Shown: positions 61,997 to 64,000 of the stretch, one piece after another
Numbering within the stretch: the stretch's first letter is position 1
How the letters are laid out: each line of letters begins with the position of its first letter
Assembly (NCBI RefSeq): GCF_054482595.1
Contig: NZ_CM137008.1
DNA length: 64,000 nucleotides
Strand: one strand, 5' to 3'
Made by a program: the position numbers and the translations under genes
Notes under the pieces: generated by a model
Database searches by the model: none
The model's input: only the letters and a program-made list of their open reading frames with translations
What the model was told of the DNA's origin: nothing

Positions 61997-62103
61997 GCAA
62001 TACCCGGAATGATGGTGCCGTTACGGGGAAGTCATCTTCACAGAAATTTTCAGTCCATTAGCATTCCGGTATTCGTACAACTTCCTTTGGTGGAGAGTAA
62101 ACA

Positions 62104-62433
62104 ATGACCAGGATGCGATGGACGCTTGACCAGAAAAAACATCACGTTGCTGCATGGCGTGCCAGTGGTCTTACACGCCAGCAATACTGTGAACTCAACG
62201 ATATTCCCTTCACATCACTTCGCGAATGGCCGCAGGATGTCGCAAAAGCTGAACGCCGGGCAAATGAACCGACCGTTCTTCCCGTTCATATTGCGCCACC
62301 ACTGCATGCTGATGTATCACAGCCCGTCACGAATGAGCCAGTCACGCTCTTCCTCCCCGGCGGAGTACGGATGTGCTGTCAGCCGTCACAACTTACCGAT
62401 GTCTTCAGGGCGCTCAAATGTGCTCAGTCCTGA
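62104..62433 (+). CDS. IS66-family Orf1 (TnpA)
   Basis: 109 aa (MTRMRWTLDQKKHHVAAWRASGLTRQQYCELNDIPFTSLREW...). Confidence 0.75.
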   Translation: MTRMRWTLDQKKHHVAAWRASGLTRQQYCELNDIPFTSLREWPQDVAKAERRANEPTVLPVHIAPPLHADVSQPVTNEPVTLFLPGGVRMCCQPSQLTDVFRALKCAQS

Positions 62434-63801
62434 TAATGTCTTCATCGCGATTAAACCTGCTGATATGCGCCGGGGCATCGACACACTGACGCAGTATATA
62501 CAGGATGAACTCAGGTCGACATGGCATGAGGGAGCCGCCTTCGTCTTTGTTAACAAAGCCCGTTCGCGTATCAAAGTTCTGCGCTGGGATAAACACGGGG
62601 TGTGGTTGTGTACCCGTCGTCTGCATAAAGGCAGCTTCCGCTGGCCACGTACAAATGACGTTGCCTGGCACCTCACTCCCGACGAGTTTAATTGGCTTAT
62701 TGCCGGTGTTGCCTGGCAGCAAGTTAAGGGACATGACCTGACGAAATGGGTCTGGCTGAATGAAGCTGAACTGCGTGCTATGGCACTTGCCATGGTGCAA
62801 AAAGTCATGTCGGAGAATGCCGAAAAAGAGCGGGAATTACTGGAGAAAAGCCGGCGCATCCAGCTTCTGGACGAAATGCTGAAACTGGTTCGTCAACAGC
62901 GCTTCGGTAAAAATGTGAGACGCTGGCTGGTATGCAACGCTCCCTGTTCGAAGAGGATGTTGATGCCGATATCGCCGCGCTCACCGCACATCTGGATAAA
63001 CTGCTCCCGCAATCCCCTGAAGAAGACGAAAAAGCGCCCCGTTCATGCCCGATACGCAAACCCTTACCGGTCCATCTTCCACGGGTGGAAAAAATTATCC
63101 AGCCGGACACTGACCATTGCCCTGAATGTGACGAGCTGCTGCACTATATCCGTGATGCGGTGAGTGAAAAGCTGGAGTATATTCCCGCTCACTTCGTGGT
63201 GAACCGTTATGTCCGTCCGCAATACAGTTGTCCCTGTTGCCTGAAGGTGTTTAGCGGTGAAATGCCGGCACATATCCTCCCGAAAAGTGCCGTTGAGCCG
63301 TCAGTCATCGCACAGGTGATCATCAATAAATACAGTGACCACCAGCCTCTGTATCGCCAGCAACAGATCTTTGCCCGTTCAGATGTCGGGCTGCCCGTCA
63401 GTTCGATGGCTGATATGGTTGGCGCGTCGGGAGCCACATTATCCCCCCTGGCGGCGTTACTCCATCGCGAGTTGATAAGCCGTCAGGTGGTGCATGCAGA
63501 TGAGACTACCCTGAAGATCCTGAACACGAAGAAAGGCGGTAAATCCTGCTCCTGTTATCTGTGGGCATACGTCAGTGGAGAAAGGACAGGACCGTCAGTT
63601 GTGTGTTTCGACTGCCGGACCGGACGTAGCCATGAGTATCCTGAAAACTGGCTTCAGAGCTGGGTCGGGACACTGGTTGTTGACGGACATAAAGCTTACC
63701 GGACTCTGGCAAACAAAGTGCCGGAGATCACGCTGGCCGGATGCTGGGCCCATGTCAGTCATGCCAGTGAAACTGGTGATGTAGTTCATGTCGATCAGTA
63801 G
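62399..63801 (+). pseudogene. IS66-family orf2 (TnpB) and tnpC, disrupted by frameshifts
   Basis: TnpB-like segment (LSPDNVFIAIKPADMRRGIDTL...) lacks its stop; TnpC continues from 62932 in another frame (CPECDE...CPCC) and ends ...CWAHVSHASETG. Confidence 0.55.
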
Positions 63802-64000
63802 AGTGTTGGCACGCAGCAATACGCTGTCGTGGCTTGTTGTGGCCAACATGGTCAGAATGTCCTCTGTGAGATTTATGAAGGTTGTGCGAATGCGGGGGAA
63901 TCTGCTGAACGGTGCTTTCAGAGCTGGCCTGCTACGGGATACCCGGGATTACCTGCGAGGTAATGGGCTTCCGGATCGCACACCTCACGACGATCGCAGG

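Follow-up and report, generated by a model that had tools for sequence, protein, structure and literature searches.

The stretch of E. coli DNA analyzed here (64,000 nucleotides, referred to as the window) carries toward its right end an IS66-family element in which tnpB and tnpC appear to be read as one frame, and the question raised by this locus is whether such an arrangement is native to the element, which might then still be active, or whether it has arisen by decay. Comparison with public genomes suggests, with a probability of about 95%, that an ISEc49-like IS resided in an E. coli genomic island, was later inactivated, and now persists as a non-mobile remnant at 62015-63754. The preliminary description had placed the element at 62060-64000; an element does lie there, but its start is at 62015 rather than 62060 and its end, at 63754, falls inside the window. 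From left to right, its parts and the adjoining DNA are as follows:

62015-62043, plus strand: left terminal inverted repeat (IRL) GTGCCGTTACGGGGAAGTCATCTTCACAG, 28 of 29 bases identical to the ISEc49 IRL.
62104-62433, plus strand: tnpA, an intact ORF of 109 aa, 92% identical to ISEc49 TnpA (PGAP WP_040235205.1).
62420-62768, plus strand: tnpB remnant with a GTG start at 62420 (PF05717, E=1.4e-32; NF033819, IS66_TnpB, 110 bits; 93% identity to ISEc49 TnpB 1-119).
62769-62775, plus strand: deletion junction with the single kept AACTGCG, where two blastn pieces overlap and the global alignment has a gap of 126 bases.
62776-62908, plus strand: 5' part of tnpC (residues ~19-61, leucine-zipper region) in the tnpB frame; the fused ORF aligns to ISEc49 TnpC 2-61.
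62909-62913, plus strand: A5 run (A6 in ISEc49 and strain 32-4), with the alignment gap at 62908/62909.
62914-63754, plus strand: tnpC body in a shifted frame, with zf-IS66 and part of DDE_Tnp_IS66 (PF13005, PF03050), 93.5% identical to ISEc49 TnpC 69-346.
63755-64000, minus strand: non-IS degenerate island DNA with an HTH/AlpA-like regulator fragment and a hypothetical pseudogene (~80% identity elsewhere in E. coli; PGAP pseudogene calls).

The segment 62015-63754 (plus strand) is a truncated IS66-family element whose nearest named relative is ISEc49, which was also the closest IS in a megablast search covering 5,426 complete E. coli genomes, where the match came as two pieces at 94.4-95.0% identity. 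The IS66 transposase domains DDE_Tnp_IS66 (PF03050, E=1.6e-44), zf-IS66 (PF13005, E=8e-15), and LZ_Tnp_IS66 (PF13007, E=6e-5) were all detected, together with a match to NF033517 (transpos_IS66) of 237.8 bits (cutoff 180; profile positions 8-231 of 387), and the accessory genes tnpA and tnpB (the latter with the IS66 Orf2 domain) are located upstream of tnpC as is characteristic of this family. TnpA matches NCBIfam NF047593 (IS66_ISAeme5_TnpA; 48.7 bits versus a cutoff of 28) and no Pfam family. The catalytic domain is incomplete: TnpC homology stops straight after CWAH (residue 339), at residue 346, and only positions 2-156 of the 284 in the DDE_Tnp_IS66 profile (the N-terminal 55-60%) are covered, compared with the full length in the reference element. 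Similarly, of the two terminal inverted repeats typical of IS66 elements, the IRL is present and the right one (IRR) is absent, and a scan of the 64-kb window plus 7 kb past it detected no IRR-like sequence (≤5 mismatches in 24 nt). The loss of the IRR results from truncation and is no argument against IS66 ancestry.

DNA identity to ISEc49 is 91.7-92.6% across IRL-tnpA-tnpB and 96.8% across the tnpC part, and the proteins are 92% (TnpA), 93% (TnpB), and 93.5% (TnpC) identical. Isoforms in the ISfinder convention share >95% DNA or >98% protein identity, and the overall DNA identity of ~94.5% is near the limit for naming both as the same IS. Divergence is clustered at 62037-62150 (from the IRL to the first tnpA codons), where identity drops to 82-91% with several indels, while the rest of the element is 93-100% identical to ISEc49 per 100-bp bin. 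We also searched for a closer intact progenitor, and found nothing between 92.6% and 99.2% identity when the left part was used as query against the E. coli complete genomes, and nothing above ~96% among PLSDB plasmids. Considering the divergence between the IRL and the start of tnpA and that no closer intact relative was found, ISEc49-like appears to be a safer label for 62015-63754 than ISEc49. With no nearer match in E. coli genomes or PLSDB, the progenitor variant is not represented intact in these collections; it was probably a diverged ISEc49 variant, with an intact layout presumed from that of ISEc49.

As a reference, we used the intact ISEc49 of 2766 bp, a recently transposed copy, inside traX on a plasmid of strain OkiPb01695 (2514-5279 of the extracted segment); this strain has ISEc49-like matches at 10 chromosomal places plus one on the plasmid, and the two copies read out (one chromosomal and one plasmid) are both intact and 99.96% mutually identical. 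The name ISEc49 follows the NCBI PGAP usage for WP_044697315.1-type transposases. The plasmid copy interrupts traX, with the 8-bp target duplication GTATGAAG on both sides, and its ends read GTGTCGTTACGGGGAAGTCAT... and ...GAGTTCCCCGGAAGCTTAC, with an inverted-repeat match of 19/28; the left boundary was fixed by comparing three ISEc49 copies in differing contexts. ISEc49 encodes tnpA (110 codons), tnpB (131 codons, overlapping the end of tnpA), and tnpC (522 codons), the last of which starts 42 nt past the tnpB stop in the same frame as tnpB, so that the two genes are separate; a transposing reference with the frame arrangement of the window was thus not encountered. The window element resembles ISEc49 in the order of tnpA, tnpB (its start overlapping the tnpA end by 14 nt in both), and tnpC and in DNA sequence (~96-97% identical across most of the length), but it lacks positions 753-878 and 1866-2766 (including the IRR) and has A5 instead of A6 at ~1019. 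A few ISEc49-like copies (NZ_CP083263.1 and NZ_CP027255.1) span 371 bp, not 307, over the tnpB-tnpC junction, with ~64 bp extra in the spacer, and the length of this junction therefore varies among relatives. The tnpABC layout and an 8-bp target duplication are hallmarks of IS66 (PMC6778807). The founding members IS66 and IS679 likewise have three ORFs in the order tnpA-tnpB-tnpC and 8-bp duplications (PMC6778807), and their DDE transposase contains a CWAH motif, whereas their protein similarity to the window copy is distant and the latter is a fragment without two ends or a readable duplication.

Global alignment of the window to the intact OkiPb01695 copy was used to map the lesions of the element. 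Window positions 62015-62768 align to ISEc49 1-752, and reference positions 753-878 (126 bp) are then absent. In the reference, the 7-bp sequence AACTGCG is present at both edges of the missing segment, one copy of which is kept in the window, and these repeats suggest that the deletion may have occurred by replication slippage between them. It takes away the last 11 codons and the stop of tnpB, the spacer of 42 nt, and the start of tnpC up to codon 15, leaving tnpB residues 1-119 (with the repeat at 62769-62775 counted). Because 126 is divisible by 3 and the frames of tnpB and tnpC coincide in ISEc49, the two genes have become one reading frame, the product of which (...LTKWVWLNEAELR-AMALAMVQKV...) consists of TnpB 1-119 joined to TnpC from residue 16 onward. 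This explains the earlier observation that orf2 has no stop of its own and continues in frame into the 5' region of tnpC: the frame from GTG at 62420 runs to a stop at 63163 and encodes TnpB followed by TnpC (AMALAMVQK...QQRFGK). Within the 5' part of tnpC, two of 45 codons differ from ISEc49.

The next lesion lies in the A run at 62909-62913, where the reference sequence GGTAAAAAATG (which is also found in strain 32-4) reads GGTAAAAATG in the window. This change from A6 to A5 places the tnpC body, after residue ~61, in another frame, as had been noticed from the reading frames: the body is encoded by an ORF at 62932-63801 (289 aa) whose frame differs from that of the fused ORF. Homopolymer slippage during replication in the sub-lineage of the window may account for it.

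At its 3' side, homology to ISEc49 ends at 63754, corresponding to ISEc49 position 1865 and TnpC residue 346 (...AGCWAH). The window protein then continues with VSHASETGDVVHVDQ* where ISEc49 has ARRGFADLY, and the C-terminal motif described as aberrant is therefore due to read-through into unrelated island DNA for 21 codons, up to a stop at 63801. The lost 901 bp comprise TnpC residues 347-521, including the DNNxxER motif, and the right inverted repeat. This motif is DNNVCER at residue 442 of ISEc49 TnpC, and the other IS66 TnpC examined conserves it too; the catalytic E is reportedly assigned to it, in work by Gourbeyre and colleagues from 2010. Junction microhomology at the break is only ~2 nt, and the 3' part may have been lost by an illegitimate deletion or rearrangement that would also have removed neighboring DNA. 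From 63755 onward, the sequence shows ~80% identity to a degenerate pair of genes, one for a regulator and one hypothetical, known from prophage-like islands in other E. coli that also contain zinc-ribbon, YagK/YfjJ, and Hha genes. The regulator gene to the right of the break is assigned to the AlpA family in the annotation of strain GTEN_97, and it too is truncated at the junction.

The sequence beyond the window end, which the preliminary description had proposed to inspect, contains no continuation of the element, but unrelated island DNA and then a third IS66-type fragment. The left end of this fragment (GTAAGCGTAAACTGACC..., starting with GTAAGCG...) begins ~660 bp on from the break and is located ~420-650 bp past the window end (10418-10653 of the extracted segment) together with a 50-aa tnpA fragment. 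It matches IS66-like tnpA genes from STEC strains of cattle at ~96% identity, and 3' of it are truncated sgc/PTS genes followed by sgcR-yjhIHGF.

Considering that one end and part of the catalytic domain are missing, the remnant would be unable to transpose or to be mobilized in trans as a unit. The suspected inactivity of the element is thus well explained by the absence of its right inverted repeat and of the last third of the transposase at the C-terminal side, and no observation spoke against it. Judging from the sequence, residual roles may at most include expression of the small intact TnpA and service as a patch of homology for recombination with ISEc49 copies. In agreement, PGAP annotates tnpA as intact in the RefSeq records of the E. 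coli carriers, calls tnpB an incomplete pseudogene, and labels tnpC "frameshifted; incomplete; missing C-terminus".

We then examined the distribution of this locus in E. coli. Window positions 54001-64000 are base-for-base identical to 4,992,988-5,002,987 of NZ_CP007592.1 (E. coli O157:H16 strain Santai). Ten complete E. coli chromosomes match the region 62000-64000 at 100% identity, and two others do so at 99.3%. The fused-junction allele was recovered in one piece in exactly 12 of the 5,426 complete genomes, once in each, while in the other ~280 genomes with this IS the junction query was split by an extra 126 bp (190 bp in a few). These copies represent one orthologous locus, because a 2-kb query containing both flanks was fully covered in the same 12 genomes; a second copy of the left part of the element was not found in Santai or the other carriers examined. 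Strain 32-4, one of the two 99.3% relatives, has the same 126-bp deletion and the same break at 63754, retains A6, and shows a TGG to stop change (W83-stop) in tnpB at the position of window 62667. Thus, the deletion and the truncation are older and common to the carriers, and the frameshift and the nonsense codon occurred later and separately. Both the 126-bp deletion and the 3' truncation are present in all 12 genomes, and neither is placed before the other. Such a pattern in sister lineages indicates that decay was independent and probably neutral, and the ratio of synonymous to non-synonymous codon changes against ISEc49 (~1:1) also fits relaxed constraint.

An IS-free site was identified in strain Z1323MEC0001 (NZ_CP148318.1; 6697-7262 of the extracted segment), which has the same amidohydrolase-dcuC-LysR module, with LysR followed by the myo-inositol genes iolR-iolT1, and whose homology with the window ends at 62017. 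Based on this empty site, the insertion point lies 18-21 bp past the LysR stop, and the same comparison shows that the original right-hand DNA has been replaced in the lineage of the window. The first three bases of the IS (GTG) coincide with the empty-site sequence, and the left boundary is ambiguous by 3 nt. Very probably, an ISEc49-like IS inserted 18 bp downstream of the LysR-family regulator gene in the genomic island, and the 126-bp deletion, the 3' break, and the change from A6 to A5 then inactivated it.

Several features of the locus could be read in other ways. Programmed frameshifting on A-runs is established in other IS families, and the frame change in the window falls exactly at the A run 62909-62913, so that one might consider a native TnpB-TnpC fusion, possibly active, whose translation depends on programmed ribosomal frameshifting as in IS3- or IS1-type elements. 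However, ISEc49 and strain 32-4 have A6 and are read in frame at this position, and programmed frameshifting at the A-run was rejected on this ground. The fusion itself can hardly be native either, given that the 126-bp deletion is known at only one locus and that the element is single-copy in every carrier; even with the frame restored, the protein would still end at residue 346 of 521, without DNNxxER, and the element has no right inverted repeat. We consider this explanation to be of negligible probability. The same holds for the idea that A5 is a sequencing or assembly error and that tnpC is really in frame with the fusion: although some sequencing chemistries often misjudge the length of homopolymers, A5 recurs in 10 complete genomes, each assembled independently and all 100% identical over 62000-64000, the two other genomes have A6 plus further differences, and with A6 the element would still be fused and truncated. 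It is also unlikely, but less easily dismissed, that an inversion, a rearrangement associated with transposition, or a large insertion split the element and left its 3' half and IRR elsewhere on the chromosome. The mosaic island contains at least three IS66-family fragments, which could promote rearrangements, and the neighboring regulator gene is cut at the junction as well; yet no 3' sequence of ISEc49 is present in the 64-kb window or the 7 kb downstream, and a split would change only the history of the element, because the tnpB-tnpC deletion and the frameshift would remain and activity would not be restored.

A different kind of explanation is that the remnant has been kept through co-option of the intact TnpA or of the fusion of TnpB with the leucine zipper, for instance to regulate other IS66-family copies. 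Consistent with this, both sub-lineages keep an intact tnpA with an identical product (WP_040235205.1). But the 12 genomes are 99.3-100% identical in this region, which makes conservation uninformative, tnpB carries a nonsense codon in one sub-lineage, and the substitutions relative to ISEc49 show no purifying signal; retention by co-option is thus very improbable. We attach just as little weight to the related proposal that the cell expresses TnpA, or the fusion of TnpB with the TnpC leucine zipper, and that this protein affects other IS66-family copies in trans in a dominant-negative or regulatory manner, in which case the remnant would be a domesticated transposition modulator and not junk.

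The presence of two IS66-family types, as originally proposed, is confirmed by their distinct TnpA, TnpB, and TnpC proteins, one copy being ISEc43/ISEc23/IS682-like and the other ISEc49-like. Between the copy at 56.5-58.0 kb and the element discussed here, TnpA shows no significant similarity (E=0.4), and TnpB and TnpC are only 26% and 31% identical, respectively. The former copy (56404-58100, minus strand; ~93% DNA identity to ISEc43/ISEc23/IS682) belongs to the same family, has the same three-gene order, and is also decayed, but, unlike the ISEc49-like element, it has its own TnpA, an HTH_Tnp_1 (PF01527) protein of 145 aa versus 109 aa. Its tnpC carries a frameshift close to residue 208 and is cut off at 56404. 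At the same locus, strain SCEC020001 has an intact tnpC of 531 aa (1600-3192 of the extracted segment), and its sequence diverges fully from the window to the left of 56404. A short ORF at 56245-56451 (minus strand) passes from IS66 TnpC straight into an unrelated peptide and marks the truncation junction of this first IS66 copy; the unrelated peptide may resemble the C-terminus of RsmI. Further to the left, an ORF of 637 aa at 54163-56076 (plus strand) has an N-terminal signal-like sequence and the PGAP name "enterotoxin" (WP_040235199.1). The amidohydrolase-dcuC-LysR module itself (58349-61996) is flanked by two unlike, outward-reading IS66 remnants, each of which faces it with its tnpA-side (left) end, and the LysR flank is present in only 14 of the 5,426 complete E. 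coli genomes.

In its identity, subtype, and decay, the element is an ordinary remnant, and public genome records already list its tnpB and tnpC as pseudogenes; it bears on no open question, and its importance is small. The main value of these results is in annotation: 62015-63754 can be labeled as the remnant of an ISEc49-like element, and its three lesions are defined. The locus provides a clear case of stepwise IS decay, and the accessory island with the amidohydrolase-dcuC-LysR module is marked as a mosaic in which IS66-family fragments of at least three unlike kinds occur.
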